Virus record (IMG/VR): IMGVR_UViG_3300011116_000920
Location: 4,368 to 68,367 of that record
Length of the DNA: 64,000 nt
Source of the DNA: a virus
Direction: 5' to 3' (one strand)
Shown here: positions 9,266 to 27,686 of the stretch, one piece after another
Layout of the letters: each line of letters begins with the position of its first letter
How positions within the stretch are numbered: the stretch's first letter is position 1
Position numbers and translations under genes: made by a program
The notes under the pieces: model-generated
Database searches by the model: none
The model's input: only the letters and a program-made list of their open reading frames with translations
Told to the model about the DNA's origin: nothing

Positions 9266-9403
9266 CCCGGTTCTAACCACCATTAGATCCGGGCTTCGCC
9301 CGACGACGTACAGGGCACCTACCGACAGACCGAACTACAGAAAGACCGACGCACCTACCTAACGACAGGGCATTGGACAGGCGTACATTAGACAGGACAA
9401 TCT

Positions 9404-9947: not shown

Positions 9948-10209
9948 ACAGCACAACGGAACCGACGAACGGACAGGACCGACGGATAGACCCAACGAAA
10001 GGACGGACAGAATGACGGACGGATAGGATGAATCGATTGACGGACGAATTTCAATCGGGATGAGAGGAAGGAAGCCCGAGTAAATTTTTTGAGGTCAAAA
10101 TATGGTGTTTTTGGTAAAATATATGTACCAATATTATGAATTTATAGTTTTCTGTTGTATATTTGTAGGGCAGTCGCAAATGAGCAACTGGCTTAAACTT
10201 TGAAAAAAA

Positions 10210-10482
10210 ATGGAACAAATCTTTTTTGTGGTTTCGGCTGGATTCACAGTCCAAAACCAACAGACAGGCAAGGCGAAAAATTACCTCGTAGAGGTAATCG
10301 TCAAGTATTCACAGAAAAGCGATAGCAATACAGTTATCGCATACCTTGAAAATCCGAAAAGGAAAGAAGGTGTGAAAATCTTCGAAAATTTCCCTGTAGA
10401 TGTAAAAGAGTTTATTCTACAGGGAGGCACCTGGAGGAGATGTAGAATGGAGGAGTTAAAAATCCTTCAATCACAAAATTAA
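10210..10482 (+). CDS. hypothetical early protein
   Basis: Promoter TATATTTG ~10158, hairpin at ~10488. Confidence 0.7.
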   Translation: MEQIFFVVSAGFTVQNQQTGKAKNYLVEVIVKYSQKSDSNTVIAYLENPKRKEGVKIFENFPVDVKEFILQGGTWRRCRMEELKILQSQN

Positions 10483-10555
10483 GACAAGCCCCGCGGTGAC
10501 AGAGCGGGGCTATCTTTTGTTTCAAAGTAATTGTAACCAATTAAATCTATTATAT

Positions 10556-10693
10556 ATGGAATTTACAAGTTTTGAGGAGTTCTTAGATATTAGATTAGAC
10601 TCTTCGTTTTTAGAACAGTGGGCTGATGATTTCGCCCTCAATGAACTCTTAGCGGAAATAGAACAAGAGAAGGAAGAGGAAGAAGAGGAGTAA
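10556..10693 (+). CDS. very acidic small protein
   Basis: MEFTSFEEFLD...EQEKEEEEEE; probable start 10556. Confidence 0.6.
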   Translation: MEFTSFEEFLDIRLDSSFLEQWADDFALNELLAEIEQEKEEEEEE

Positions 10694-10916
10694 AACGGAA
10701 GCCCCCGGACGGAAACGGACGGGGGCTCTCTCTTATTCAATGGAACGCAGCCGGAGAGGGCTAGCGTATTTCAATCGGGCTGAGAGGAAGGAAGCCCGAG
10801 TAAATTTTTTGAGGGCAAAATATGGCGTTTTTGGTAAAATATATGTGAAAATACTTGCATTATATGGTATTATAGCGTATATTTGTATCATTAATTAACT
10901 ACTTAAATTTTCTGTT

Positions 10917-11129
10917 ATGGAAAAATTATTTTTCGGCGACGTAGTCGCATTCAATTTTTATCAGCTTGCCAATGGCAAGTGGGCAGGTCGTAATTCGTCA
11001 CATGTCTATGTGACAGTTAAACCTTTCCCAAAGGGCGTAAGCCCTGTAAGATTTAAGCACGAACGTTGCGTTCGTGCAACACCAAAGCAATCCCACGAGT
11101 ATCTAGATGCGTTCATCATACGTCTCTAG
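10917..11129 (+). CDS. hypothetical early protein
   Basis: Promoter ~10878 and leader motif. Confidence 0.7.
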   Translation: MEKLFFGDVVAFNFYQLANGKWAGRNSSHVYVTVKPFPKGVSPVRFKHERCVRATPKQSHEYLDAFIIRL

Positions 11130-11187
11130 TTCAGTAAAGCCCCGCGGTGACAGAGCGGGGCAATTTTTAACCAATTAACAAAAAAAA

Positions 11188-11373
11188 ATGATTTTATTGA
11201 TTAAATTAACAACCGCCGCCGCTTTATCAGCAAACCGTGGCGGGTTCATCGAACCGGGGGAAGCCTCTCCCGAATTTCAAAAGTTAATCTTAATACTACT
11301 ACTATTAGCGGTAGTATTATCAGCAATCTTTACTCTCCTAGATATAAGGAGAGAAAAGAAAAGATTAAAATAA
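11188..11373 (+). CDS. small membrane protein
   Basis: TM helix LILILLLLAVVLSAIF and basic tail. Confidence 0.6.
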   Translation: MILLIKLTTAAALSANRGGFIEPGEASPEFQKLILILLLLAVVLSAIFTLLDIRREKKRLK

Positions 11374-11598
11374 AAGAAGCCCCGGTCGAAAACGACCGGG
11401 GTTTTTTTTTGCCCAAACGGAACGTATCGAAACGGAACGGGTGCCGACGAATTTCAATCAGGCTGAGAGGAGCGAAGCCTGAGTAAATTTTTTGGGATTG
11501 AAATATGGTGTTTTTAGCAAAATAATTGAGTAAAAACTTGTATTTTTCAGTTTTATATTGTACTTTTGAGTCATTGTTAATCACTTAAATATTTAGCT

Positions 11599-11871
11599 AT
11601 GCAAAATTTAAAAGTTTTGAGCGTACGCTCAAAAAAAGAAAACCCAACTTATAACGAACTAAGCATCTTGCGTACTCACGCAAGGTCAATTAGTTTCTCT
11701 CGAGAGAGAGATATTGTTGAGCTTTTGGAGAAATCCACAGAAGGTAGTATAACCCTGGAAGTAGGCAGAAATGTCTACGATTGCGCGGGACCAGGGTGGA
11801 GTCACTCCTGTAATTATGAAATACTAGGGGAGGCTACCTATGCTATAGGGAATCCCTGGGACTCTATATGA
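11599..11871 (+). CDS. hypothetical early protein
   Basis: Promoter TACTTTTG ~11561. Confidence 0.7.
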   Translation: MQNLKVLSVRSKKENPTYNELSILRTHARSISFSRERDIVELLEKSTEGSITLEVGRNVYDCAGPGWSHSCNYEILGEATYAIGNPWDSI

Positions 11872-11935
11872 ATAAATAAGATTGCCCCTCGCCAAAAGCG
11901 GGGGGCAATTTTTAACCGTTTAAATTAAAAAAAAA

Positions 11936-12037
11936 ATGAAAAATCAAAAGGTAGAAAACGAAGTCGTATGGATTGCGGCATTAGTTTTATTCGTATCTGT
12001 TCTCTTTATATCCGCAGGCATGGCTTGTGGATGCTAA
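11936..12037 (+). CDS. small single-TM peptide (33 aa, not in ORF track)
   Basis: MKNQKVENEVVWIAALVLFVSVLFISAGMACGC after an A-tract; followed by a terminator. Confidence 0.55.
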   Translation: MKNQKVENEVVWIAALVLFVSVLFISAGMACGC

Positions 12038-12282
12038 AACAGAAGCCCCGGCCGGTAACGGTCGGGGTTTTTTTATGCTCAAACGGAACGCATCAAAACA
12101 GACCGACAACCGGACGGAACGGATGCCGATGGATTTCAATCAGGCTAAGAGGAGCGAAGCCTGAGTAATTTTTTTGGGATCAAAATATGGTGTTTTTGGT
12201 AAAATAATTGAGTAAAAACTTGTATTTTACAGTTTTATATCGTACTTTTGAGTCATTGTTAATCACTTAAATTTTTATTATT

Positions 12283-12612
12283 ATGCAACCAAATGTTTTA
12301 GGTCATTTCCAGAAAAATGAATTAGTAGATATGATTCGCGTATTAAGCGGATTGTATCTTTCCAAAAACCAAACAACCAAAATGCTAAGCAGGCAATGGG
12401 CAGAGCCCATTTCAGTTGGCACAGCAAACGGGAGGTTTTACAATGACCTTGTTGAGGTCGAATTAGATAGATTATATTCGCTTGAGCTTAATAGCGAATA
12501 TAAAAAATCAATTCCAAGGTGGATATGGGAGGCTCAAAACAAAGATATAGCTATGGATAACGTAGCAAAAACTATCGAGTTTGCCGCACATTTTGCGGGA
12601 GTCAAAAGATAA
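12283..12612 (+). CDS. hypothetical early protein
   Basis: Cassette with promoter and terminator. Confidence 0.7.
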   Translation: MQPNVLGHFQKNELVDMIRVLSGLYLSKNQTTKMLSRQWAEPISVGTANGRFYNDLVEVELDRLYSLELNSEYKKSIPRWIWEAQNKDIAMDNVAKTIEFAAHFAGVKR

Positions 12613-12841
12613 CAGAAGCCCCGGACCGGTAACGGTTCGGGGTTTTTTTTTGCCTAAACGGAACGTATCGAAACGGAACGGATGCCGACGGATTTCAATC
12701 GGGCTGAGAGGAAGGAAGCCCGAGTAAATTTTTTGAGGGCAAAATATGGTGTTTTTGGTAAAATAATTGAGTAAAAACTTGTATTTTACAGTTTTATATC
12801 GTACTTTTGAGTCATTGTTAACCACTTAAATATTTTCACTT

Positions 12842-13255
12842 ATGACTACTATTGAGTTTGAAAAAAACAGTTTTTTATTTGTTGCCTATGTTCAAAGGGA
12901 AACTGAGAAGGCTTTCCTATGTGAACTTATTTGTTTCACAGGACCGTTTGATGCGGTGAAGTTGAATAGATTAATTTGGCTACCTAAATCTGCGGTAAAT
13001 AACGGTAAGTTAGCCAATTGGCTCGCGTATAAGTTAGACCTAAGCGGTTCATGGGAAGGAGTTTCACTATCATATCCCAAATCAGCGCCTACCCAAGAGG
13101 CTGTAGTGTGTGATGATTACAAAGAGTTGAGAGATGCTCGTAATTGTGATGCTGATGAGCAAGAAAACGAAGACCGTGCGGAGCAAGCCGAAGTTTGGTT
13201 TGCGAGTCAGGGAGGGCACTCTTACCGAGGAAGCGACCTGAGTGACTTGCTATAG
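12842..13255 (+). CDS. hypothetical early protein
   Basis: ETEKA...WLPKS motif typical of small phage beta-barrel proteins. Confidence 0.7.
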   Translation: MTTIEFEKNSFLFVAYVQRETEKAFLCELICFTGPFDAVKLNRLIWLPKSAVNNGKLANWLAYKLDLSGSWEGVSLSYPKSAPTQEAVVCDDYKELRDARNCDADEQENEDRAEQAEVWFASQGGHSYRGSDLSDLL

Positions 13256-13476
13256 GAAAGAGCCCCGGCCGGAAACGGTCGGGGTTTTTTTTGCCCAAAC
13301 GGAACGTATCGAAACGGAACGGGTGCCGACGGATTTCAATCGGGCTAAGAGGAAGGAAGCCCGAGTAAATTTTTTGGAGGCAAAATATGGTGTTTTTAGC
13401 AAAATATATGTACCAATATTAGGAATTTACAGTTTTATATTGTATTTTTGAGTCATTATTAATCACTTAAATATTT

Positions 13477-13728
13477 ATGACTATGTCAAGCGCATTCATT
13501 TTGAGCCAAGTATTATCAGATGTAATTATTTCAACTTATGTTGAACAAAAGTATTACGGGACAAAGGAATCACAGGAAAAATACCTTGAATCCATCCTAA
13601 AGGCGAGAGCAGATTTTTATAGATTAAAAGAGAAATTTGGAACAACCAAAATCGATGACATCTATCTAATTTCAACCGAGAGAAATTTAAACAATGCGAT
13701 AGAATTCATTCAAGATTGTTTAAAATAG
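13477..13728 (+). CDS. hypothetical early protein
   Basis: Cassette with promoter. Confidence 0.65.
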   Translation: MTMSSAFILSQVLSDVIISTYVEQKYYGTKESQEKYLESILKARADFYRLKEKFGTTKIDDIYLISTERNLNNAIEFIQDCLK

Positions 13729-13793
13729 GCCTAAACCAAACAGCCCTGCGGTTTTATCGCAGGGCACTTTTTTCACCACTTAAACAAAAAATC

Positions 13794-13928
13794 ATGACAA
13801 GATCTAAAAGAATCCTAATTGACATTAAAAACAATTATGCAATCATTTTTTGCATGTCATTTTATTTAGGCATGTGTCTTATGATGGTAGCGATTGTAAT
13901 AGACATCATCATTAAGAACATATTTTAG
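13794..13928 (+). CDS. small membrane peptide
   Basis: Start after CACCACTTAAAC leader; one TM helix. Confidence 0.55.
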   Translation: MTRSKRILIDIKNNYAIIFCMSFYLGMCLMMVAIVIDIIIKNIF

Positions 13929-14018
13929 AACGGACGAACCCCGGCTTAGAACGGTCGGGGTTCATTTTATCATTAGAACGGATTACATTTTATTACATTA
14001 CATTTTAAACATTATAAC

Positions 14019-14288
14019 ATGAACAACCTATCATCTTTATTGAACAATCATGCAATCCAATTTGGAACAGATGTAATGAGATTCTTATCCATTGATGCTG
14101 TTCCTCATGGTTGGGCATTTTGGATTAAATTATTGTTAGTCATTATTGTCATTAATAACATTTGGGATATATGTAAAGAATTATTAAACATTATTAGTAA
14201 AGAAGATTATATTAATTTAAGATCTATATTTAATGATGTTGTTTGGATTTACATTGCATTAGTATGTCTTAAGTACTGGTTCTTATAG
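14019..14288 (+). CDS. small membrane protein
   Basis: Two hydrophobic helices. Confidence 0.5.
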   Translation: MNNLSSLLNNHAIQFGTDVMRFLSIDAVPHGWAFWIKLLLVIIVINNIWDICKELLNIISKEDYINLRSIFNDVVWIYIALVCLKYWFL

Positions 14289-14483
14289 ATGTGATAGATG
14301 GCTGGGAATTAGATTAGATTAGTTCCCCGCCGGATTTTGCTAGGGCTGAGAGGAAAGAAGCCCGAGTAAATTTTTTGAGGCCTAAATAACGTATAATAGG
14401 TAAAATAAATAGGCAAATAGTTGATTTATTCAATTTTATTTTGTATTTTTGATTCATCGTTAATTAGTTAAATAAATCAAGTT

Positions 14484-14903
14484 ATGAACAACACAAATTT
14501 CGTGGCGACTATGTTCCACGCTATGTTCCCTCTGCTAAACGCTGCAAGAGTTTATGTTCCTTCCTTCGGTATTGAGGATAGAACAAAAATAGCCTTTCTT
14601 AAAGCATTCAATGAGTCTTTAATTGAATTAGAGAAAGTGTCAACATTAAATATTGAGCCAGAGTGGTACATAGCTCAATTTAAAAATTGGGCTAAGTCAA
14701 GCGAGGAGGGTATTTTTATGAGTATGTTATCCTATCATCCTGAACAGTTTTATCCACAACAAATCGAGGATATGCCTGGAGATGAGGATTTCTGGTGGGG
14801 GATGTATCAGAAAGAGCAATGGGATTTATACGAGCACCCATTCTTTGACAGTTGGTTACAAGAAGCTCAAGAAATAACTTACGAAATGTGGCAAGAGCAT
14901 TAA
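14484..14903 (+). CDS. hypothetical early protein with acidic/aromatic C-terminus
   Basis: Cassette with promoter and terminator. Confidence 0.7.
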   Translation: MNNTNFVATMFHAMFPLLNAARVYVPSFGIEDRTKIAFLKAFNESLIELEKVSTLNIEPEWYIAQFKNWAKSSEEGIFMSMLSYHPEQFYPQQIEDMPGDEDFWWGMYQKEQWDLYEHPFFDSWLQEAQEITYEMWQEH

Positions 14904-15118
14904 ACGAAAGAGCCCCGGTCGAAAACGGTCGGGGTTTTTTTATGCCCAAACGGAACGGATGCCGACGAATTTCAATCAGGCTGAGCGGAGCGAAGCCTGA
15001 GTAAATTTTTTGGGATTGAAATATGGCATTTTTGGTAAAATATATGCGAAAATACTTGATTTATTCAATTATATGTTGTATTTTTGATTCATCATTTAAT
15101 ACTTAAAAAAATCAAGTT

Positions 15119-15418
15119 ATGAGAACATTAGAAATGGATGCGGCTGAATTGAGAGAATTATTAGCCACAAAAGCAATTTTAGAAGCAAGAGAAAAAACGC
15201 TTCGTGCTCAAATTGTTGAGGGTCTTGAGTTGAGAAATTTGACTCAATTAAGATTAGGTGGGTTTATGGTATCCCTTAGCAATCGCAAAACGTGGACTTA
15301 TTCTAAATGGGTTAGAACGCTCGAGAAAATGCTTAAGACTCGTAAAACGAAAGAGCAAAACAGCGAAGAAACTTTCTTTACTGTATCGAGAACATGTCAA
15401 CTAACAAACGAAAAGTAA
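15119..15418 (+). CDS. coiled-coil protein, paralog of 33069-33413
   Basis: Shared LE.REK.L....LE...L...K(T/S)(W/F)TYS....LEK..K.RK..E pattern. Confidence 0.7.
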   Translation: MRTLEMDAAELRELLATKAILEAREKTLRAQIVEGLELRNLTQLRLGGFMVSLSNRKTWTYSKWVRTLEKMLKTRKTKEQNSEETFFTVSRTCQLTNEK

Positions 15419-15482
15419 GACAAAAGGGGTAGGCGAAAGCCTACCCTACCTTAACAAATTTTTAACTTTTAAATCATAAATC

Positions 15483-15719
15483 ATGTTAGGCAAATTAGTA
15501 ATTATTGTAATTTATGTTTATGTATGTGTTCCACAGTCAAACGGTGGCAAAACGGAATACATGGAAAGAGTAGGTGCGCGGTCGTGGGAAATGCCCGGAA
15601 CGTTCACCAAAACGGATTCCCTAATCAACGAAACGATTAAGTATTACGGAATCGACCTTGAATATAACAGTATCAAAGTTGACGTAAATACACTACGGAT
15701 AAAGTGTGAATGTGACTAA
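15483..15719 (+). CDS. hypothetical protein with N-terminal hydrophobic segment
   Basis: ORF in cassette. Confidence 0.55.
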   Translation: MLGKLVIIVIYVYVCVPQSNGGKTEYMERVGARSWEMPGTFTKTDSLINETIKYYGIDLEYNSIKVDVNTLRIKCECD

Positions 15720-15921
15720 GAACAGCACAGAGCCAGGTCGGAGCGAATTTCGCTCCGGCAGGGCTTTGCCCTGCCTGAGTAAATTTTTGGCGGATCCGTT
15801 TTTAACATTTCTTTAACTAAAATAAGGAAAACATTAACATTTCATTAACTACTTGATACTGTTTTTTTGTTTATCTTTATAGTGCAGTCGCAATGAAGCG
15901 AAGGCGTTAAATAGACAGGTT

Positions 15922-16098
15922 ATGTATTTATTCATTTTAATTTTCGTTTTGGCTATTTGGTTTCCTATTAGTCTGTATGCTTTAATCCTTAACAGTGAAT
16001 CCGATGGAGACACTGTAAAAGAAACATTATTAAAACTTTATATGGGTGTTTCTGTATGGTTAATTTTGATTGTATCTTGCGTCGTACTAATAGTTTAA
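15922..16098 (+). CDS. small two-TM protein (58 aa, not in ORF track)
   Basis: MYLFILIFVLAIWFPISLYALIL...GVSVWLILIVSCVVLIV. Confidence 0.55.
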   Translation: MYLFILIFVLAIWFPISLYALILNSESDGDTVKETLLKLYMGVSVWLILIVSCVVLIV

Positions 16099-16184
16099 CA
16101 AAACATTAATATGGGAGGATTTTGATTCCTCAATTATCCTCCCTATATTTGCTTTATAATTTTAAACCACTAAAAACAAAAAAA

Positions 16185-16415
16185 ATGCCATCAAAAAAAG
16201 AAAAAATAGCAGCCCTAAAAACCCTTAATTCGGCTATTAAAAAAGCTATTTCAGAAAGTGGTAATTTAGATTTTAACGATTTTGTAGATTTGTCCTACGA
16301 ATTAGAAAATAAAATCTATAAGTATCAAGTAGTTTTTAGGATAAAACCTATGGAAAATATCCCGATTCCTGAAACGGACAATCCATCAAACGGACCGTAT
16401 ATTTCAGTTCACTAA
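16185..16415 (+). CDS. hypothetical protein, paralog of 16896-17132
   Basis: KK..LKTL.SAI.K..SE..NLDF.DF.D shared; start reassigned to MPSKK. Confidence 0.7.
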   Translation: MPSKKEKIAALKTLNSAIKKAISESGNLDFNDFVDLSYELENKIYKYQVVFRIKPMENIPIPETDNPSNGPYISVH

Positions 16416-16645
16416 TAAGGTTTAATACCCACTAAACGGAAATGTTTAGTGGGTATTCCTATGCCAGTGAATTTCGCTCAGGGCAGGGCGGAGCCCTGCC
16501 TGAGTAAATTTTTGGCGGATCCGTTTTTAACATTTCTTTAACTAAAACAGCGAAAATATTAACACTTATTAACTACTTGGTATTGTTTTTTTGTTTATCT
16601 TTGTGACGCAGTCGCAATGAAGCGAAGGCGTTAAATAAACAGGTT

Positions 16646-16834
16646 ATGAAAAGTATGATGTTGGAATCAAATGGAATTAGAATTGTCTTCTCTTTTGGCG
16701 GTAAAGTACGCGTCAACCAGTTAGGCAAGGAAGTTGAATCGGTAAACAATTTTTCCACGTTCAAGAAGTGGGCGAAGGGTATTTTATCCGATAGCCAAAT
16801 TAAAGTAGCGAAGGCTCAATTCAACCGTATGTAA
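16646..16834 (+). CDS. hypothetical early protein
   Basis: Cassette with promoter. Confidence 0.65.
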   Translation: MKSMMLESNGIRIVFSFGGKVRVNQLGKEVESVNNFSTFKKWAKGILSDSQIKVAKAQFNRM

Positions 16835-16895
16835 GATTTAAAAGCCCCTACGATTAAGTCGTGGGGGCAATTTTAAACCACTAAAAACTCAAAAA

Positions 16896-17132
16896 ATGGT
16901 AACTTTATCAGAGAAAAAAGGCACTTTAAAAACCTTACAATCAGCCATCCTAAAATCATATTCTGAAAACAAGAATTTAGATTTTACCGATTTTGAGGAC
17001 GCGGCTTTTGATTTACAAGTAGATATAGAAACAGAAGAGGACGAAATAGAAACGGAACGTAATTCATTCTATGCGGACTATCAACAAAGCATAGACGCTG
17101 ACTACTACGCATTCAGACAGTCGCAAATGTAA
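16896..17132 (+). CDS. acidic hypothetical protein, paralog of 16185-16415
   Basis: Shared N-terminal half. Confidence 0.7.
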   Translation: MVTLSEKKGTLKTLQSAILKSYSENKNLDFTDFEDAAFDLQVDIETEEDEIETERNSFYADYQQSIDADYYAFRQSQM

Positions 17133-17356
17133 AACTAATAGAATATTCCCGCCGAACGGACGGTTCGGTGGGTATTCCTATGCCAGTGAATTTCGCTCAG
17201 GGCAGGGCGGAGCCCTGCCTGAGTAAATTTTGGCGGATCCGGTTTTAACATTTCTTTAACTAAAATAGGGAAAACATTAACACTTCGTTAACTACATAGT
17301 ATTGATTTTATGCCTATATTTGCATCAGATTCTTTTACTACTTAAATTAACAAGTT

Positions 17357-18061: not shown

Positions 18062-18146
18062 AAAAATGTAGGGGGAATGTTTGGAAATTTCAAATATTCC
18101 CCTTATATTTGATTTATAATTAGTTCACCACTTAAAAACAAATAAA

Positions 18147-18413
18147 ATGATAGTAAAATGTTTAGATGATTTTTTACCGTTAAGGAATGTAAACGATTTA
18201 GAATTTACGGTATTAAACAAAGAAACCGATGAAAAGCTTCTATGGTACATAGAAGATGTATTAGATGAAATAAATAGAGACAGGTCCGAAAAATGGATTG
18301 ATTATAGTAAGAATGATTGGTTTGAGGGATGGGCGGAATGGTGCGAAGATGATACATATACCATACTATCAATAGAGGACAAAGAAGATAAAGTATATAG
18401 ACCTTTCTTATAA
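18147..18413 (+). CDS. hypothetical protein, paralog of 30503-30778
   Basis: WYIEDVLDEINRDRS.KW.DY identical in both. Confidence 0.75.
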   Translation: MIVKCLDDFLPLRNVNDLEFTVLNKETDEKLLWYIEDVLDEINRDRSEKWIDYSKNDWFEGWAEWCEDDTYTILSIEDKEDKVYRPFL

Positions 18414-18645
18414 AGAAATAGTAACTTGTTTTTTGCCCCGTTGGATTCAGTGTCCGACGGGGATTTTTATGACCAGTAAATTTCGCTCAGGGCAGGGCGG
18501 AGCCCTGCCTGAGTAAATTTTGGCGGGGCGGATCTTAACATTTCTTTAACTATAATAGGGAAAACATTAACACTACCTTAACTACTTTGTATTTGTTTTA
18601 CCCTTATCTTTGCATCATATTCTTAACCACTCAAAATAAGTTATT

Positions 18646-19143
18646 ATGAAGTCAATTAATGAGTTTATCGCGGGTTTATCCTCAAAGAACACCTTTGCAG
18701 CTATCCAGTACGAGTCTTCAGCAGATAAGGTAGCAAAAAAGCTAACTTATGGTTGGTTGGCAGCCAATGGTATTTCTCGCGAAGAAGTACGTTGTATTAC
18801 TTTCCGCACTTGTCAGTTAGGTAGCACTTATAAGACAAGAGTAGAAAATAGAGAAGGCGAAGGCGTGGCTATAAATCCAGGTTGGGCAAGAGCCTTAGAC
18901 AACAAAGGGCATTTATTCGACAATCCAAAGAACCTTAAGAGATTCCTACGCGTGTTCTTAGTGCCAGGCAAACAAGTTACTTGGGGCTTTCCGGATGCAA
19001 CAACAGAACGGAACCGATTAGCCTTAGTTAAGAGAATGCAGGAAATAGAGCCGGAAACGGAATCCAATACGTTTGAAGTAAGAATGATTGAGTTGGAATG
19101 TATTCAGAGTTTAAAAGCAAAAGAAGTTTTTCAATTAGCGTAA
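18646..19143 (+). CDS. hypothetical early protein
   Basis: Cassette with promoter. Confidence 0.7.
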   Translation: MKSINEFIAGLSSKNTFAAIQYESSADKVAKKLTYGWLAANGISREEVRCITFRTCQLGSTYKTRVENREGEGVAINPGWARALDNKGHLFDNPKNLKRFLRVFLVPGKQVTWGFPDATTERNRLALVKRMQEIEPETESNTFEVRMIELECIQSLKAKEVFQLA

Positions 19144-19225
19144 AAAAAAGTAGGGGAATGTTTTGATATGTTAAATATTCCCCTTATCTTTGCAACATAT
19201 TAATCACTTAAATACTTAAAAAAAA

Positions 19226-19618
19226 ATGAACAAGGAAGGTTTAAAAATTTCGCTTACAAATGAATTAAGCGAAGAGATTTTTTTCAATGCTTTATGTAAT
19301 TCAATGGATTATATGTGTAGCTCTTATGGACTTGATTTAAAGTACAAAGAATCTGACTACCGTAAAGCTAAAGCTAAATTGAGTTCTCCATGTTTTGAAG
19401 ATGTTTTGATGCAGATGATAAAAGATGGAATGGTATTTGGAATTAAGGATTTAGAAGGGGGTGAGGATGATGTTTTTATTACATTAGAGAGTATACATGA
19501 AAGAGTTAAAAATGTTCCATTAGATCATTTGTTAGACATGATAAATGGAAATGATGATGCAACTACTGGCGATGTTGTTTTACAGACTGTTCTTTACAAT
19601 GAAATTATTTTTGGATAG
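19226..19618 (+). CDS. hypothetical phage protein (D..LQ..L..EIIFG C-terminus)
   Basis: DATTGDVVLQTVLYNEIIFG motif common in phage proteins. Confidence 0.7.
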   Translation: MNKEGLKISLTNELSEEIFFNALCNSMDYMCSSYGLDLKYKESDYRKAKAKLSSPCFEDVLMQMIKDGMVFGIKDLEGGEDDVFITLESIHERVKNVPLDHLLDMINGNDDATTGDVVLQTVLYNEIIFG

Positions 19619-19709
19619 GATTTAAAAAAGATGGGAGAATGTTTGGAAATGTAAAATGTTCTCCCTATCTTTGTATCATAATTATTTCACCACTTTAAAT
19701 TTTAAAAAC

Positions 19710-19961
19710 ATGAGCGCACCAAAAGGATGGTATCGAAATTTGATTAGTGATTCTAACATCAGAATTGCATTCACTCACTCACGGATTATTGGTTGTACAA
19801 TCGTTGACAACTCCAAAACTTTAGAGGATTTAGAGAAGTCAGAAGACCAATATGCACAATACTATATTGATGGACTGAAGTCTGGAAGTATGGTTACGAT
19901 TGTAGAGAATAATGTCATAGACAGATACTTTAAGAGGGGGGAACTTTATTTCCTTGGCTAA
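19710..19961 (+). CDS. hypothetical protein
   Basis: Start reassigned after promoter and leader. Confidence 0.65.
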   Translation: MSAPKGWYRNLISDSNIRIAFTHSRIIGCTIVDNSKTLEDLEKSEDQYAQYYIDGLKSGSMVTIVENNVIDRYFKRGELYFLG

Positions 19962-20046
19962 AAAAAAGATGGGAGAATGTTTGTATATACTAAATGTTCT
20001 CCCTATCTTTGTAGTATAATTGTTCATCACTTTAAATTTTAAAACA

Positions 20047-20292
20047 ATGCAGTATCAAATTAAAAGAGAATGTTGGAATGAGAAAACATTAAATGGATAT
20101 GTAGATAATCCATATTGGAAAATAGATTTAAATAATTTAAGTTTTGGACTAACAGATAATGGTTATTTGTGGGCGATAGGAGTAACGGGACATATTGCAG
20201 AAAATCAATGCAAAGTCTATAAAATGTATATACAAAAATTAATTAAGGAGTGTAAACTTAGTATTGATATTAATAACCCCGCGGAAAATTAA
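20047..20292 (+). CDS. hypothetical protein
   Basis: Start reassigned after promoter and leader. Confidence 0.65.
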   Translation: MQYQIKRECWNEKTLNGYVDNPYWKIDLNNLSFGLTDNGYLWAIGVTGHIAENQCKVYKMYIQKLIKECKLSIDINNPAEN

Positions 20293-20296
20293 TAAG

Positions 20297-20497
20297 ATGA
20301 AAAATAAGAAAAAATTATTTGATGAGATTGGGTATATCCAATTATACAAACGAGGTATGTGTATTACTATTTGGTATGAACGTACATATCATCAGTACTG
20401 GTATTATACTCAAAAGGAGGCAATCCGTTTGTTTAAAGAAAAATATGGAATCAAAGGTAAAGTAGAGAAAACTAATTTTTGTCCATACACATTTTAA
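20297..20497 (+). CDS. hypothetical protein
   Basis: ORF in operon. Confidence 0.55.
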   Translation: MKNKKKLFDEIGYIQLYKRGMCITIWYERTYHQYWYYTQKEAIRLFKEKYGIKGKVEKTNFCPYTF

Positions 20498-20527
20498 ATG
20501 CTCACCCACTTGAAAATATTAAATAAA

Positions 20528-20740
20528 ATGAATAACAAACATATTTGGGAAGGTTGGACTGTTCAAGATTTTATAAATGAACTTGAACCCACATTTAATA
20601 GAATTGTTAACGGCCATTCCTGGACAGCACCTTTTAAGAACAGCAAAGAATTAAAAGAGTGGCTTATGGATAATCAACCGTATTATAAGAAGCATATCCC
20701 TGAGGTATTTAATTACTTTAAGGAAAGACTAAAGATATAA
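20528..20740 (+). CDS. hypothetical phage protein
   Basis: IWEGWTVQDFI...NQPYYKK motif. Confidence 0.65.
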   Translation: MNNKHIWEGWTVQDFINELEPTFNRIVNGHSWTAPFKNSKELKEWLMDNQPYYKKHIPEVFNYFKERLKI

Positions 20741-21069
20741 TAACTTGTTTTTTTGCCCCGTCGGATTTAGTGTCTGGCGGGGATTTTTAGGATCAGTGAA
20801 TTTCGCTCAAGGCAGGGCAAAGCCCTGCCTGAGTAATTTTTGGCAGGACTCCTTTTTAACATTTCTTTAACTATTATGGGAAAAACATTAACACTTCATT
20901 AACTACTTGGTATTGGTTTTACCCTTATCTTTGTGGTGTTATTAAGAGAAAGGGTAAGCAAATAGAAAGGCAAAAAAGTAATTTAAAAAAAGTTTGCCTA
21001 AAATTTGGAAATTAGAAAACTACTCTTTATCTTTGCAAAAGATTCTTAACCACTTTAAATTTTTAAACT

Positions 21070-21795
21070 ATGATTCTTTCAGAAGTAAAAAGCGCAAACC
21101 TAAGCGCTAAGTATGTGGCTATCAGTTCACAAAAATTGATTAATGACCTTAAATCTAATGGGTTTGAACTTTCAGGCTTTCAGACCAAAAAGAAAGGTGC
21201 TAAAAGTTCCGCACACCTTATTAGAATGAGGTACAATAAGGAATTAATCTTAAAGGGTGAAACCTTATACCCCGAAGTTGTTATTCGTAATTCTTTTGAC
21301 GGAACGGTTGGGTTTGAATGTTCAATGGGAATATTTAGATTAGTATGCTCAAACGGACTAACTGTATCAGATTCAAGATTTGAGTCCAAGATTTACAAAG
21401 TAAAGCATTTCGGAAAAAAAGCAATGGATATTTCGGAAAAGGTTATTTCGGGTGAAATCGTAGCTAACTTTTTTGATTTGCTACCTAAACTTGAGGAATA
21501 TGTATTGCAGCAAATGTCTGTAAACTTGACCGAAGAAAAGGCTATTGAGTTTGCTATGAAAGCTGCTGCCTTGCGTTTTAAGAGAATCTTTACAGAAAAA
21601 GAAGCAAAAGTACTACTTGCTTCAGAAAGGTTTGCTGATGATGAAAATACCCTTTGGGCAATTCAGAACCGTATTCAAGAAAAATTGATTAATGGGTTTG
21701 CAGGTAGAAGAAAATATTCTGCTTTAAAAGACCCTAACAAAACTGCGGTTATCAATGAGAGGTTAGCTAATCTTTCTATGGAGTTCGCAAATTAA
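21070..21795 (+). CDS. DUF932/DUF945-family protein
   Basis: IRNSFDGT...GIFRLVCSNGL...TLWAIQNRIQE. Confidence 0.8.
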   Translation: MILSEVKSANLSAKYVAISSQKLINDLKSNGFELSGFQTKKKGAKSSAHLIRMRYNKELILKGETLYPEVVIRNSFDGTVGFECSMGIFRLVCSNGLTVSDSRFESKIYKVKHFGKKAMDISEKVISGEIVANFFDLLPKLEEYVLQQMSVNLTEEKAIEFAMKAAALRFKRIFTEKEAKVLLASERFADDENTLWAIQNRIQEKLINGFAGRRKYSALKDPNKTAVINERLANLSMEFAN

Positions 21796-21884
21796 TTTAA
21801 AAAAATGTGGGGGGATATTTGGATATGTCAACTATCCCCCATATATTTGCATCAGATTATTAATCACTTTAAAATGTCTTAAAA

Positions 21885-22049
21885 ATGGATAAGTATGTTT
21901 TAGTTTGTTGGCCGGAAAGTCAATTATTAATGGACGTGGAATGGTTCGATGAATGTATACTAATGAATGACATGGAGCATTTAGCTGACATAGGTTCTTC
22001 TGCCTACTTTGTTCCGGAGGATAGATATTTGGAATTAACAAGTAAGTAA
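21885..22049 (+). CDS. small hypothetical protein (54 aa, not in ORF track)
   Basis: MDKYVLVCWPESQLLM...GSSAYFVP after promoter and leader. Confidence 0.65.
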   Translation: MDKYVLVCWPESQLLMDVEWFDECILMNDMEHLADIGSSAYFVPEDRYLELTSK

Positions 22050-22131
22050 TAAAGATGAGGGAATGTTTGGAAATGTAAAATGTTCCCCCTATCTTTGCGC
22101 TATAATTATTCACCACTTAATATTTTAAATC

Positions 22132-22608
22132 ATGCACAATCTTCATTTAATTAGAACAAAAGCTGATTCTCATTCCGACGCTCTTAGTATTGTTGAAGAC
22201 TTTTTACAAAGTTGGGGTACTGAGAATAATTGGTCAACTGTATTGGGTTCTCATTGCAAAGAGGATAAATCATTTTCGGAACATTTTGACGAAAAATGGG
22301 TAACTAAGGATGAATTACTAAATGACCCAAATAGATTTGATTTCTTAACAGAGGTAAATGCCTACTATAAGGAAGCATTCCATAAGGTATCTAATTTAGG
22401 AGGTACTGTATTGATTAAACCTTTTGATTGGAGGGCTGCTGCTAAATACTGCAAAGAGCAATCTGAGATATCAAATCTTTTAGACCCTACTAAAGTTGAT
22501 ATATGGTCAGATACTTTCTACGAGTTTGATATTGACGAGCCTGGCATTACAGACCTATGTTATGATGGTGCTCTAACTTTCATTGTGTTGGTTGATATGC
22601 ACTCGTAA
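22132..22608 (+). CDS. hypothetical phage protein (MH...VDMHS ends)
   Basis: Cassette gene followed by a terminator. Confidence 0.7.
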   Translation: MHNLHLIRTKADSHSDALSIVEDFLQSWGTENNWSTVLGSHCKEDKSFSEHFDEKWVTKDELLNDPNRFDFLTEVNAYYKEAFHKVSNLGGTVLIKPFDWRAAAKYCKEQSEISNLLDPTKVDIWSDTFYEFDIDEPGITDLCYDGALTFIVLVDMHS

Positions 22609-22921
22609 ATAAAAACCCTCTTAGTGAAAGCTAAGAGGGTTTTTCTATGCCAGTGAATTTCGCTCAGGGCAGGGCAAAGCCCTGCCTGAGTAATTTTTGG
22701 CGGGATCCCTTTTTAACATTTCTTTAACTATACCAGGGAAAACATTAACACTCCCTTAACTACTAGGTATTGTATTTATGCTTATCTTTGCAGTGTTATA
22801 AAGAGAGAGGGTAAATAGAAAGGCAAAAAAGTAATTTAAAAAAAGTTTGCCTTAAATTTGGAAAATAGAAAAATACCCCTTATCTTTGCCAAAGATTTTT
22901 AACCACTTAAATAAACTTGCT

Positions 22922-23629
22922 ATGTTAAAGCAAATTAATTTCAGATTAGGCGACGTTATCCATTGCATAGATATCAAGCCTAGCGCTACGCCTAAGCTCG
23001 CTAAAAAAGGCGAAATTATCCTACAAACTTATCATTTTTCTATCGACCAGATTAATGAGGGCAGCCTAAAAAATGATTCCAAGGTGTGTTTTGATTGTAA
23101 GTTCTCTTACAATGCAAACGGTGGAAAATCAGGCGGTTGCTATACCCATGCGAACGGATCCTTAGCGTGGGGATTAATAGCAAAAGTAAAAGCTTTAAAG
23201 AAGCGTTTGGATAACGGATTAATTCCGGAGGGAACAAATGGGGTAATGGAACAAATTACAAGCGTTACAAAAAAGGTTAAAATATCCTTTGCTAGAATGG
23301 GAACGTATGGGGAGCCTACCTTATTACCTTTTGAATTGCTAGAACAAATAAGGCCTTTGGTTGGCAAGGTATCGGGATATACTCACCAATGGCATAAACC
23401 CGAAAATAAGCAATATGCAAAATACCTAATGGCAAGTACGCATAATATATTTGACGTAAAATTGGCCGAAGGTTTGGGATTTAGGTCTTACAATGCGAGT
23501 GAGGTTGAAGGTGCTATCCTTTGTCCATCAGCGCCAACCATAGCAAAGGAGAAGCAAGTAAGCTGCGCTAAATGTGGATTGTGTGAAGGTGGAAAGAAGG
23601 CTAAGAATATCTACAATGTAATCCATTAA
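22922..23629 (+). CDS. Cys-rich putative Fe-S/Zn protein, paralog of 17357-18061
   Basis: Same Cys and GYTHQW motifs. Confidence 0.7.
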   Translation: MLKQINFRLGDVIHCIDIKPSATPKLAKKGEIILQTYHFSIDQINEGSLKNDSKVCFDCKFSYNANGGKSGGCYTHANGSLAWGLIAKVKALKKRLDNGLIPEGTNGVMEQITSVTKKVKISFARMGTYGEPTLLPFELLEQIRPLVGKVSGYTHQWHKPENKQYAKYLMASTHNIFDVKLAEGLGFRSYNASEVEGAILCPSAPTIAKEKQVSCAKCGLCEGGKKAKNIYNVIH

Positions 23630-23714
23630 CATAATCTTAACATAGGGGGACTTGGTTTTATCAAATGTTCCCCCTATCTTTGCATCATATTAATAACCAC
23701 TTAAATTAAAAAAC

Positions 23715-24125
23715 ATGAAAAGGATTAAGGTTAGATTCTCTTTACAACGTGGAGAGAATTACATGAAATGGAGAGTCATTGGTAGCGATGGGGTTGTCAC
23801 ATATTACAATCCATGTGACGTTCAATTAATCATGAGAGGTTGCACGTTAAGGAACAATAAGAAATTAGCTACAAAGATTTACAATGGTGAAAGTACGAAG
23901 GTTGTATGTGCATGGATTTTATGTGATGATTTAGAGATTAGACATTCTGATTTTATTAAGGAATCTGATTTTAAAATTAAGTACAACCCTAAACTTGCTC
24001 CTCACTGGATGTTCCTGGGAGAGGATATAGATAATAGGAATATTTCTTACATTGTTTCGGTTGACTTTAAGTTATGTATTGATTTGATTCCCGATGCTAT
24101 GGGATTGGGAGGATATAAGAGTTAA
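23715..24125 (+). CDS. hypothetical phage protein
   Basis: KVRFSLQRGENYMKW...KVVCAWI...YNP motif. Confidence 0.7.
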   Translation: MKRIKVRFSLQRGENYMKWRVIGSDGVVTYYNPCDVQLIMRGCTLRNNKKLATKIYNGESTKVVCAWILCDDLEIRHSDFIKESDFKIKYNPKLAPHWMFLGEDIDNRNISYIVSVDFKLCIDLIPDAMGLGGYKS

Positions 24126-24234
24126 GAATTCCCCACGGAAAATTAACAAAACATTAACGATAGGGGGTATTGCATATTATATCCGATACCCCTATCTTTG
24201 CATCATAATTAATCACCACTTTAAAACAAAAAAA

Positions 24235-24531
24235 ATGGAAAACATTGAGCAGCCAATGGAAACTTTTGATTTTTTCCTTGACCAAAAAATAACTACATGG
24301 ATGCGTACTAGATTTAGCGTGGAAGCTACATCAAGAGAAGAGGCAATAGAGAAAGCTAAGAAGGAGTATGAGGAGTTATGCCGGGATGAATCTTGGGAGG
24401 AGATTCCGGACGTTCAAGAAACAATGACTGTAAGAGATAACGCTGGTTTTAGCACCGAAGAAGTTTACATAGATGAATTTCCTACAATTAAGATTTGGGA
24501 AAATGGCATGAACTCATTAGAAGATTTTTAA
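24235..24531 (+). CDS. hypothetical protein (VEA.S.EEA motif)
   Basis: Start reassigned to MENIEQ. Confidence 0.65.
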   Translation: MENIEQPMETFDFFLDQKITTWMRTRFSVEATSREEAIEKAKKEYEELCRDESWEEIPDVQETMTVRDNAGFSTEEVYIDEFPTIKIWENGMNSLEDF

Positions 24532-24619
24532 CAAAACATTAACGATAGGGATATTGCATAGTATATCCAATACCCTTATCTTTGCATCATAATTAATCAC
24601 CACTTTAAAACAAAAAAAA

Positions 24620-24877
24620 ATGGAAAAGAATTTAGAAATTAAAACTTTTTGGACTAATAAGGCTAAAGAAGTTCTTCTCGGTAGAAAAATTGTAGGTGTT
24701 AGATATCTAACCGACAAAGAAATGCAGACACTTGATTGGTATGAAAGGTCTGTTGTATTTGTTTTAGATAATGGTACTCTATGTTTTATAGCATCAGATG
24801 ATGAAGGTAATGGTGGGGGTAGTCTTCACTATTTTCTCAACAACGATGAATTTAATATCTTGCCTACATTATCATAA
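24620..24877 (+). CDS. hypothetical phage protein
   Basis: SDDEGNGGG motif. Confidence 0.7.
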   Translation: MEKNLEIKTFWTNKAKEVLLGRKIVGVRYLTDKEMQTLDWYERSVVFVLDNGTLCFIASDDEGNGGGSLHYFLNNDEFNILPTLS

Positions 24878-24905
24878 TTAATCACCACTTAAAAAACAAA
24901 AAAAA

Positions 24906-25136
24906 ATGAACTTTATTGAATTAACTGAATTAGACGGTACAAAATTTATTGCAAACATAAATCTCATACTAAGAGTTTATGTAAATAGTAAAGGTCTAAC
25001 CACGATTATTGATTTGAACACCACTTTGAACACCACAGGTTATCCAATCTATGTTGAGGAATCATACGCAGAGGTTATAGAGAAAATCTATACAGTTGAT
25101 ACTAATACTCTTAGACTTAAATATAAAAATCAATAA
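24906..25136 (+). CDS. FlbD-like small protein, paralog of 27454-27660
   Basis: MNFIELTELDG.KFI.NINLI..V...VEES..EV..KI. Confidence 0.65.
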   Translation: MNFIELTELDGTKFIANINLILRVYVNSKGLTTIIDLNTTLNTTGYPIYVEESYAEVIEKIYTVDTNTLRLKYKNQ

Positions 25137-25156
25137 CCACTTTAAAACAAAAAAAA

Positions 25157-25369
25157 ATGAAACACACTGTTAAGGTAGTATTTGGAAAAGAACAAGTCAA
25201 AAAACTTTACGAAGGTGAGACACTTACTGATGATGAGATTTATAGTAATGTACAAGAATATGATTTTGATACTTCAGCTGAAAAATCTGCTTTTATCAAA
25301 GGTCTATTTGAGTCTTTAGGATGGGAAGATATTTGTATTCCTGAACTTGAATTTAATCATAATAAATAA
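25157..25369 (+). CDS. hypothetical protein
   Basis: F.T.AE..AF.KG motif; leader motif. Confidence 0.65.
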   Translation: MKHTVKVVFGKEQVKKLYEGETLTDDEIYSNVQEYDFDTSAEKSAFIKGLFESLGWEDICIPELEFNHNK

Positions 25370-25389
25370 CCACTTTAAAACAAAAAAAA

Positions 25390-25557
25390 ATGTTAGTAGA
25401 ACTAAAGGAAATCTCAAGAAGAGATTTAGTAGAGGCTTTAGAGGAATTACTTTCAGATGAGTTTGATTCATCAGAACTTGTTTACTTGACCGAAGAAGAA
25501 CTCATTAGGTCTATAATCAATGCAGCTAAATTCTACAAAGAATCGTATAATAATTAA
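25390..25557 (+). CDS. acidic small protein (55 aa, not in ORF track)
   Basis: MLVELKEISRRDLVEALEELLSDEFD... after ACCACTTTAAAAC leader. Confidence 0.6.
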   Translation: MLVELKEISRRDLVEALEELLSDEFDSSELVYLTEEELIRSIINAAKFYKESYNN

Positions 25558-25567
25558 ATAAAAAGTA

Positions 25568-25641
25568 AGTCAGGTAGCTCAATGGTAAGAGCGGATGCAG
25601 TCGGGTAGGCGGTGCAGGTTCGATTCCTGCCCTGACTTCCA
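25568..25641 (+). ncRNA. tRNA-like RNA with intact acceptor, D and T arms and CCA but no anticodon stem
   Basis: AGTCAGG/CCTGACT, GCTC-AATGGTAA-GAGC, GCAGG-TTCGATT-CCTGC, T-CCA. Confidence 0.75.
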
Positions 25642-25699
25642 AAGGTTAATAGATGTTTAAGTGGTTTGGCTCCTGGCAGTAATGTCAGGAGTTTTTTTT
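25642..25699 (+). ncRNA. candidate sRNA (tRNA-like trailer) with anti-leader seed and terminator
   Basis: GTTTAAGTGGTT (25655) then GCTCCTGGCA-GTAA-TGTCAGGAGT-T8. Confidence 0.45.
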
Positions 25700-26037
25700 G
25701 TTGCTAGCAAATTTCGCTCAGGCAAGGCTTCGCCTTGCCTGAGTAAATTTTGCCGCTCCCCCTTTCCGGGATGGCCAGGGATCTATGGGGAAAATCCAGG
25801 CGTTAACATTTTTTAACATTTCTTTAAGATCCTTTTAACATTTGAAATTAGGATATTAGATAGATGGGATGTATCTTTGCAATGTCAATTAGATGATGGG
25901 GAATAGATGAGATATGGTATGGGTTACATTTTACTGCATTTCATTTTAACATGACTTTAACATTTTAGGATTAGGATATTAGATGGAATGTCATTATCTT
26001 TGCGACATATTATTAACCACTTTAAATTTTTAGAATC

Positions 26038-27660: not shown

Positions 27661-27686
27661 TTAATCACCACTTTAAAACTAAAAAA

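Follow-up and report, generated by a model that had tools for sequence, protein, structure and literature searches.

Putative PeSL-type hairpin linkers between reshuffled gene cassettes in a T4-like phage and its relatives

In the IMG/VR virus record IMGVR_UViG_3300011116_000920 (68,367 bp; completeness by CheckV, 41%), 15 co-oriented imperfect hairpins lie among small cassettes of orphan open reading frames (ORFans), all within 16 kb. We analyzed this array in bases 4368–68367 of the record, a 64,000-nucleotide stretch hereafter called the window, and compared it with the arrays of five related viral contigs. Between these relatives, cassettes have been gained, lost, duplicated and reordered, and the blocks of homology end in the repeated linkers that carry the hairpins. 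The arrangement recalls the PeSL of T4-type phages, a strong early promoter of the host type with AT-rich upstream DNA and a stem-loop just upstream, as described in two reports (PMC2839356; PMC4122927). With confidence a little better than even, we lean towards the reading that the array is a PeSL variant, in which the hairpin would be a terminator that insulates or acts as a backup, and homologous recombination would act on the linkers.

The hairpin array and its linkers

An initial annotation of this DNA, made from the sequence alone, had described 15 co-oriented imperfect hairpins of two families, A (eight copies) and B (seven copies), mostly ~560–780 bp apart (once 1001 bp) and then 1.3–3 kb apart. 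The array proved to be as described. The motif GAGTAAWTTTT was present without mismatches at all 15 core coordinates, every one on the + strand, and both the families and the spacings were correct. One additional exact match, at 30240, had no 5′ arm. When up to one mismatch was allowed, 23 matches were found against 12.1 ± 3.4 in 100 shuffles, none of which reached 23. In the whole 68,367-bp record, CCYGAGTAAWTTTT occurred 15 times in the forward direction, and neither its reverse nor the backwards-read pattern occurred. Each core is the 3′ end of a ~42-nt imperfect hairpin, the arms of which read AATTTCGCTCAGG and CCTGAGTAAATTT. In family A (cores 10078–14999), an AT outer stem leads to a GC stem of 7 bp that is closed by a purine-rich loop of 11 nt. 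In family B (cores 15777–25741), the stem has 18 pairs and ends in a triloop; a C is bulged, and in some copies a G is too. The triloops in the window are TTT, GGA (three copies), AAA (two copies) and TTC, which are the four that had been reported; a small hairpin claimed at 9290 was also present.

Five further viral contigs carry GAGTAAWTTTT, co-oriented within each (15, 14, 3, 5 and 7 exact copies; reversed control, 0), and once one or two mismatches in the 3′ arm were allowed, the total reached 68 copies over six records, including the window. A search of viral contigs with a looser pattern gave 108 stretches; among the 80 returned loci that were checked (120 pattern matches), those with a genuine 5′ arm were confined to the five related contigs. 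The contigs G001 and G003, which bear the same array, encode Portal_T4 (E = 7e-73), Gp23 (E = 9e-77), Terminase_6N, tail sheath and T4_baseplate proteins, together with gp32, a UvsX-like RecA (E = 4e-47), an SbcCD-like Metallophos+AAA_23 protein, a family A DNA polymerase and a ribonucleotide reductase; the other 155 kb scanned of these two contigs contained no convincing hairpin copy. The closest cultured capsids are those of Microcystis phage Mel-JY01 (60% identity), Flavobacterium phage immuto (54%) and Rhodothermus phage RM378 (37%). A megablast search with window positions 10000–18600 found no cultured phage as a near relative at the DNA level, and the GAGTAA motif was absent from both cultured relatives searched, the count in immuto being equal to that of the reversed control. 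The RNA-ligase protein was less than 60% identical to all 576 matching records (best, 25–27%). The stretch is present in 20 sequencing runs from 9 studies, with mostly freshwater or riverine labels. Judged by these genes and labels, the phage is an uncultured freshwater T4-like myovirus. A host among the Bacteroidota is probable, because the promoter type (see below) and the relatives point to this group; the epimerase gene was uninformative in this respect, its sole match being a locus of an archaeal metagenome-assembled genome (39% identical).

With RNA parameters, the predicted folds had energies of -6.3 to -13.9 kcal/mol in family A and -22.6 to -24.9 kcal/mol in family B; with DNA parameters, the values were -5.0 to -8.2 and -12.6 to -15.6 kcal/mol, respectively. 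Covariation was assessed in 32 family B copies (25 distinct) and 26 family A copies (20 distinct) from the six records. In family B, 96.9% of the cells pair, compared with 25–55% when the partners were slid, and double changes occur in three pairs (14 cells), a cell count and a covariation score that no shuffle matched. In family A, 88.2% of the cells pair and double changes are found in one pair. The compensatory changes and conserved bulges that had been noted in the window are thereby borne out. In the relative G4, some inner stems have been wholly replaced (GGGTCATTC/GAATGACCC; GGCTATTC/GAATAGCC) with the outer frame unchanged, and the degenerate copies there retain ATTT(C/T)GCT..GG ... 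CC(Y)GAG(T/C)AAWTTTT. A G.T (G.U) pair is conserved in 23 of the 25 distinct family B copies and is A-U in the other two; it becomes G-C in three copies with the 3′ arm GAGCAA. The frame of 11–13 nt is almost invariant. The inner core varies in length by several nucleotides (a centre of roughly 15–19 nt), so a folded element fits better than two half-sites on a straight duplex. As a whole, the comparison supports the view that the element behaves as a folded structure, with an asymmetric conserved outer frame and a variable complementary centre. An argument from strand asymmetry (G.T without A.C mismatches) was dropped, because its outcome changes with the modelling of C6, either as a bulge or as a mismatch with A.

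The ten loop sequences of the B type form five reverse-complement pairs (AAA/TTT, GGA/TCC, GAA/TTC, TAAA/TTTA and GATA/TATC), and both orientations were seen at orthologous sites. Upstream of the gene family F4, the loops in the six records are GGA, TTT, TCC, AAA, TAAA and TAAA, and upstream of F10 they are TTC, AAA, AAA, AAA, GAA and AAA. In seven orthologous family B hairpins of the relatives G1 and G2, five of the six differences lie in loops, and one of them is an AAA/TTT flip. This flip-flop is a DNA-level signature of arm inversion or template switching, and similar loop flipping is known from chloroplast hairpins and viral terminal palindromes. In natural populations, sequencing reads with flipped loops could serve as a simple marker of hairpin activity.

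Alignment of 26 family A and 32 family B intergenic regions showed that the whole linker (~230 bp) is repeated and that conservation runs from the hairpin to the ATG. The linker consists, in order, of a GC hairpin with a T-run at the gene end, a short spacer, the conserved hairpin, upstream promoter DNA, a -7 element, a leader and the ATG. The spacer between terminator and hairpin is T-poor in family A, with ACGGAAC repeats; the upstream promoter DNA is AAATATGGTGTTTTT...AAAATAATT in family A and comprises two TTAACAnnnnnTTAAC box pairs in family B. According to PMC6847099, the -33/-7 consensus of Bacteroidetes is TTTG/TANNTTTG, refined to TAHHTTTG. The promoters of the window match this type, with the -7 element TAHHTTTG (TATCTTTA in one copy), a motif with 56 occurrences on the + strand and 15 on the - strand of positions 8300–48000, where the genes lie on the + strand; a scan for sigma-70 promoters gave no excess (68 found, 74 expected). 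In the window, counted from the G of GAGTAA, the -7 element starts at exactly 80 nt in all eight family A copies; in family B it starts at 94–95 nt in six copies and at 131 nt in the remaining one. The initial annotation had placed most hairpins ~80–120 bp before the next promoter; the promoters are of the Bacteroidota type and not of the sigma-70 type.

Over all six records, the -7 element lies at 79/80 nt in 25 of the 27 A-type copies, the other two having a variant -7 element outside the pattern, and among the 41 B-type copies it lies at 93–95 nt in 28, at 78/79 nt in 3, at 105 nt in 4 and at 126–131 nt in 6. In G4, an additional promoter module stands behind the same hairpin frame. Stereospecific coupling between hairpin and promoter was rejected, since the spacing classes (80, 94–95, 105 and 126–131 nt) are not whole helical turns apart. 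Because the same frame precedes at least four promoter modules without a common helical phasing, the hairpin is best described as a generic upstream boundary element. Two further candidate identities of the 3′ arm were rejected. As a -10 late promoter of the gp55 type, GAGTAAAT would be expected upstream of the structural genes of G001, where inspection by eye found A/T-rich AATAA-like strings and no GAGTAAAT; as a host -7 element, TAAATTTT does not have the invariant final G, and no -33 element was seen by eye at the proper distance.

The initial annotation had also stated that most hairpins follow an intrinsic terminator. A T-run of at least five within 75 nt upstream was found in only 9 of the 15 copies; four others have an upstream hairpin alone, GC-rich and without a clean T-run at cores 10798, 16502 and 17221 and without a T-run at 14364, and the copies with cores at 10078 and 15777 have neither. 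At the latter copy, which begins at 15745, the conserved hairpin is the sole terminator-like structure after its cassette. Eleven more TTAACAnnnnnTTAAC matches occur on the + strand outside the hairpin linkers, ten of which (23626–29925) are followed by a -7 element. These ten sites lie directly against the preceding gene, with no terminator and no GAGTAA hairpin, so that the hairpin accompanies terminator-insulated cassettes only. The TTAACAnnnnnTTAAC sites at 23626–29990 overlap the preceding stop codon, and most contain an inverted repeat, TAGGGG...CCCCTA, which spans the TTG ~20 nt upstream of TATCTTTG and the arms of which vary complementarily between copies. Sites of this third class look like promoter-embedded hairpins, and by analogy they may be nearer to classical PeSLs. 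At 42300, the TTAACAnnnnnTTAAC box is present and a recognisable promoter is absent.

Cassette reshuffling and the comparison with PeSLs

The cassettes encode mostly orphan proteins, since 38 of 45 open reading frames (ORFs) had no Pfam match (E ≤ 0.01) and 37 of 45 had no PHROG match. When the ORFs of the six arrays were clustered, their order was partly conserved, with clear rearrangements. The window has [F13 F14][F15 F14'] where both G1 and G2 have [F15][F13 F14]. The order of F34 and F25 in the window is the reverse of that in G1, which also carries F30 in duplicate; F24 and F37 are paired with different neighbours. Despite 98.2% identity over 13.6 kb, G1 and G2 differ by whole cassettes in their family A parts. 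The homologous blocks that hold moved cassettes start 33–36 nt before GAGTAA, that is, at the 5′ edge of a hairpin, and end 73–122 nt past the next GAGTAA; overall, the block ends of the window, G1 and G2 lie between -102 and +122 nt relative to the cores. After a divergence of G1 and G2, homology returns ~120–130 nt before the core, at the end of the upstream ORF. In the more distant relatives G4 and G5, rearrangements were also found away from the hairpins. Some contig joints link homologous points of different linkers (25698 to 17181, 25698 to 16462 and 13406 to 15050), and these may reflect paths of the assembly or variation between strains. As the linker is repeated in full, crossovers cannot be located any more precisely. 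A comparison of cassette order and content across related genomes had been proposed in the initial annotation as a check; the order is not fixed, and the blocks of homology end in the hairpin-bearing linkers.

According to the two PeSL reports, PeSL stem-loops were effective terminators in reporter tests, and their role in stopping read-through and shielding the next promoter was shown experimentally in coliphage RB49. PeSLs concentrate in hyperplastic regions among ORFans, and indels and replacements that distinguish close relatives end at them; they mediate indels and form mini-circles, and a middle-promoter version, PmSL, exists. Their authors left undecided whether the exchange is homologous or site-specific, and speculated that a protein might target the GGGG...CCCC stem-loop (PMC2839356; PMC4122927). 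The four PeSL features that can be examined in sequence all appear in the present array: the T4-type genes of G001 and G003 mark a T4-type myovirus as the carrier; a stem-loop, followed by AT-rich or TTAAC-box DNA, lies upstream of a host-type promoter in 15 of 15 window copies, with the ATG 34–166 nt past the -7 element; 15 near-identical copies are clustered among ORFans; and indels and replacements in the window, G1 and G2 end in the repeats. The PeSLs and PmSLs of RB49/phi1, T4/PST and KVP40/nt-1 share with the array a T4-like myovirus as carrier, a stem-loop above a host-type promoter with AT-rich DNA, many repeats between ORFans of a hyperplastic early region, two promoter classes with the same stem-loop idea, indels, swaps and duplications between close relatives that end in the repeats, and stems rich in GGGC/GCCC. 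The present array differs from them in having a promoter of the Bacteroidota -33/-7 type, a hairpin ~70–120 nt upstream of the -7 element where that of the PeSL abuts the promoter, a separate canonical terminator in most cassettes, and an almost invariant asymmetric frame around a free palindromic core.

Considering these features together, we propose that each small ORFan cassette would be a self-contained transcription unit, with the hairpin marking the upstream boundary of the promoter half and acting chiefly as an insulator. RNA that reads through the first terminator would fold the hairpin, which could then act as a backup terminator or attenuator and shield the next promoter from upstream transcription. 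Because the linkers are near-identical repeats, phage recombination can cross over within them, and because this T4-like phage has genes for gp32, a UvsX-like protein and an SbcCD-like protein, general homologous recombination in the ~230-bp linkers suffices to account for the shuffling. Crossing over by the UvsX-like RecA, gp32 and the SbcCD-like nuclease within the linkers would delete, duplicate, swap or import whole cassettes with their regulation intact. The comparison shows the build of the linker, its conservation, the T4-like identity and the reshuffling of cassettes between relatives; that the hairpin terminates transcription, and that the exchange is homologous and not site-specific, we infer.

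Several observations weigh against the hairpin being a backup terminator and the exchange being homologous. In 9 of the 15 copies a canonical terminator already lies 15–60 nt upstream, so that a second one is not obviously needed. Only two of the 15 hairpins, both of family B, passed a simple terminator scan; the GC stem is followed by GAGUAAAUUUU(UU), with 4–7 T after it that are partly paired with the 5′ AATTT, and with GAGTAAA between the stem and the T-run, the hairpin looks like a poor match to a canonical terminator. A plain terminator leaves two features unexplained: of 68 copies, 58 have an exact 3′ arm GAGTAAWTTTT even though the alignable stretches of the contigs are just 68–89% identical to the window, and the frame keeps its asymmetry, with a C that is bulged or mismatched and the G.T pair. 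Transcription of the hairpin gains no support from the contigs of RNA runs, which are uninformative at repeats. The complementarity of the arms could itself stem from arm-to-arm conversion and not from selection, and because conversion could preserve complementary stems, covariation alone is no proof of function; the conserved frame does argue for selection. Finally, breakpoints cannot be placed inside the linkers, and a site-specific exchange at the hairpin is also compatible with them.

PeSL-type linkers are a proposed route by which T4-like phages swap accessory genes without regulatory damage, and the present array would extend them to T4-like phages with Bacteroidota -33/-7 promoters. Here the stem-loop is cleanly apart from both the terminator and the promoter, and its base is constant nearly letter for letter while core and loop are free, which makes the PeSL question testable: whether the stem-loop is a mere terminator or a recognised recombination or regulatory site. 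Among the literature items listed in the searches made, none reported the GAGTAA motif or such a hairpin array in T4-like phages of Bacteroidetes. By its capsid, Flavobacterium phage vB_FspM_immuto (MW353176.1) ranks second among the cultured relatives. At 67.6–73.8 kb it has a promoter module that is repeated 15 times before small genes, each copy with GTTGC ~20 nt upstream of TATATTTAGGTATCAATAATTAAAAC; it differs from the present array in that the upstream hairpin of the GAGTAA type is absent. Some of its modules have a covarying GC hairpin in the promoter spacer (GCCTC-TTCG-GAGGC, GCCCC-TTCG-GGGGC). Immuto is a culturable model for PeSL-type arrays in phages of Bacteroidota.

Alternative roles of the hairpin

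A structure-specific role in DNA keeps a low probability on account of the invariant frame and the loop flip-flop. The hairpin or cruciform of the + strand might be recognised through its asymmetric base by a phage protein that nicks, resolves or assembles on it, so that the element would be a structure-specific hotspot of cassette exchange, like an attC site or an IS200/IS605 end without their enzymes; it might alternatively serve another DNA transaction beside the putative origin-like repeats described below. We regard this as unlikely, yet the build of the element is attC-like, with its conserved outer inverted boxes and a palindromic centre of variable length that is ill-suited to a rigid dimer on B-DNA. 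The G4 copies with wholly replaced inner stems in an unchanged frame, the pairing of all ten B-type loops with their reverse complements, and the AAA/TTT difference at one orthologous hairpin of the 98% identical G1 and G2 fit it as well, as does the single orientation of all copies, which begin right after an AT-rich repeat region with an 11-bp period. However, loop flips and arm homogenisation are expected of any long perfect inverted repeat, the rearrangements of G4 and G5 also lie away from hairpins, the contig joints between different linkers are ambiguous, and no candidate protein was found.

The search for such a protein covered five contigs (G000–G004; ~397 kb) in six frames, and because this genome is incomplete, the absence of the enzymes below is not proven. 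The tyrosine recombinase profile PF00589 matched none of the five contigs (control positive in 14 of 14 genomes), nor did the Y1/HUH transposase profile PF01797 (control positive in 6 genomes). The T7/N4-type RNA polymerase profile PF00940 likewise matched none of them, but its control matched nowhere. No recombinase or polymerase of these kinds was seen among the 58 ORFs of at least 250 aa in G001 and G003 or the 39 ORFs of at least 150 aa in the window. A tyrosine or HUH recombinase, for which the initial annotation had proposed a search, was thus not found in these contigs with either profile, and the proposal there that the hairpins are shuffling sites analogous to attC holds only in so far as cassettes are reshuffled at the linkers. 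Integron attC sites are imperfect palindromes at cassette boundaries, with a GTTRRRY core box and its inverse. The present hairpins share with them co-oriented boundary palindromes, conserved outer inverted boxes, a variable centre and conserved unpaired bases; they differ in the 3′ arm, which is GAGTAAWTTTT and not the GTTRRRY core, in the promoter and terminator that each cassette has of its own, in the lytic T4-like phage that carries them, and in that no IntI-type tyrosine recombinase was found. Membership in the attC class is not supported, given the PF00589 result in the five contigs and the arms, which are unlike R and L core boxes, and neither is a hairpin of the IS200/IS605 or REP/RAYT type, given the PF01797 result in the same contigs. 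The fuller version, in which a hairpin or cruciform is extruded beside the origin-like repeats, is read by a putative protein of the T4-like phage and directs cassette exchange or promoter insulation, seems rather improbable. If true, it would amount to an attC-like system without a tyrosine or HUH recombinase, with the loop flip-flop as a footprint of extrusion.

It is similarly improbable that the hairpin works as a transcribed RNA element other than a terminator, at which read-through or polycistronic early RNA would be cut or stabilised, or a factor loaded onto RNA polymerase. The co-orientation of hairpins and genes is consistent with such an element, as are the 18-pair bulged stem of family B with its low folding energy in RNA parameters and the conserved G.U pair, which is replaced by A-U or G-C where it changes. 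Contigs of four runs, two of them RNA or guessed to be RNA and two DNA, were compared. Those of run X20, an RNA library, extend from upstream genes into hairpins (e.g., 13786–14366 and 20982–22684), which would agree with transcription; they stop, however, where 31-mers become repeated, DNA-run contigs end at the same places, and DNA within the X20 library is possible. Because contigs break at the repeated linkers, they inform on neither transcription, transcript ends nor junctions. Strong terminators precede most copies and no promoter lies between terminator and hairpin, the stem of family A is short and mismatched, and the only Rfam family that matched the window was tRNA (four matches). 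The RNase III hairpins between T7 early genes are likewise conserved, bulged and set between co-oriented genes, but in the present array terminators and individual promoters flank each hairpin.

An operator on duplex DNA, with the conserved arms as half-sites for a dimeric phage or host regulator of all insulated early cassettes (for instance in early shut-off), has still less in its favour, and we consider it quite improbable. The outer arms are conserved in sequence and inverted, and the site lies upstream of every promoter of the two families, as an operator might; yet the spacing of the half-sites varies by several bp, a duplex operator has no need of a palindromic centre, the distances to the promoter fall in the four classes given above without common helical phasing, and the site would lie ~82–140 nt upstream of the inferred start.

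The initial annotation had compared the family B triloops with the cGNAg hairpins of phage N4 and had suggested a site for a virion enzyme or for staged DNA entry. Neither a virion RNA polymerase nor staged entry has a footing in the present data, and we regard such a role as very improbable. N4 virion-RNA-polymerase promoters, present in three copies, are small triloop DNA hairpins upstream of early genes, as family B hairpins are, with stems flanked by AT-rich DNA, but the present array has at least 15 copies, longer stems, an 11-nt loop in family A and a host-type promoter on every cassette, and its phage is T4-like, with no match to PF00940 in the five contigs (control silent). Because loops flip to their complements, with both orientations at orthologous sites, no loop sequence such as GNA is selected.

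Coordinates and surroundings of the array

Table 1. Hairpins and promoter-leader halves in the window (positions of the window).
Feature	Position	Strand	Remarks
Hairpin 1, family A	10046..10088	+	No upstream terminator; preceded by AT-rich repeat region
Hairpin 2, family A	10766..10808	+	
Hairpin 3, family A	11449..11491	+	T9 intrinsic terminator ends ~40 nt upstream
Hairpin 4, family A	12131..12173	+	GAGTAATTTTT variant
Hairpin 5, family A	12690..12732	+	Upstream terminator 12614–12647
Hairpin 6, family A	13331..13373	+	
Hairpin 7, family A	14332..14374	+	5′ arm ATTTTGCTAGGG; upstream T-run terminator absent
Hairpin 8, family A	14967..15009	+	
Hairpin 9, family B	15745..15787	+	First of family B; long stem, TTT triloop; begins 26 nt past upstream ORF stop
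Hairpin 10, family B	16470..16512	+	GGA loop, bulged G
Hairpin 11, family B	17189..17231	+	GGA loop
Hairpin 12, family B	18479..18521	+	GGA loop; upstream terminator 18436–18462
Hairpin 13, family B	20799..20841	+	AAA loop; upstream terminator 20756–20782; flagged terminator-like by simple scan
Hairpin 14, family B	22656..22698	+	AAA loop; flagged terminator-like by simple scan
Hairpin 15, family B	25710..25751	+	TTC loop; after tRNA-like gene and terminator 25668–25693; promoter module differs from the others, -7 element at +131
Promoter-leader half, family A (example)	10089..10209	+	Conserved AAATATGGTGTTTTT block; -7 element TATATTTG 10158–10165; ATG 10210
Remaining family A -7 element starts	10878, 11561, 12243, 12802, 13443, 14444, 15079	+	
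Promoter-leader half, family B (example)	16513..16645	+	Two TTAACAnnnnnTTAAC box pairs; -7 element TATCTTTG 16596–16603; ATG 16646
Remaining family B -7 element starts	15872, 17315, 18605, 20926, 22783, 25872	+	

The ~780 nt upstream of hairpin 1 (9270–10045) contain no + strand ORF of at least 50 aa. They comprise ~500 bp of degenerate AT-rich tandem repeats with periods of 11–19 bp (units such as ATGTTATATAG and GATGTTATATAGATTAAAT), flanked by T-poor, ACGGAC-rich DNA, and they align to G1 and G2 at 72–77% identity. In the RNA-library run X20, this region had the top contig depth, which may be a repeat artefact. The repeats may be origin-like or bent DNA.

Two pairs of cassette genes are paralogous: those at 17357–18061 and 22922–23629 encode proteins of 234/235 aa that both match phrog_2554, and those at 24906–25136 and 27454–27660 encode small proteins with weak FlbD-family matches. 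A DUF932 protein is encoded at 21070–21795 and a DNA methyltransferase (phrog_757) at 26696–27367. The tRNA-like gene at 25568–25641 (+ strand) scored 48 bits with the Rfam tRNA model, and ARAGORN gave its anticodon as four bases, 'gtcg', without an identity; the homologous stretches of the five relatives contained no tRNA by ARAGORN. The array begins near a divergent switch of the coding strand at ~8300, and the genes of its flanks (1–8300 and 48000–64000) lie on the - strand. Their products include an S8 peptidase, collagen-repeat tail fibres with Peptidase_S74 chaperone domains, several glycosyltransferases, a sulfotransferase, two ParB_N proteins and an amidase.

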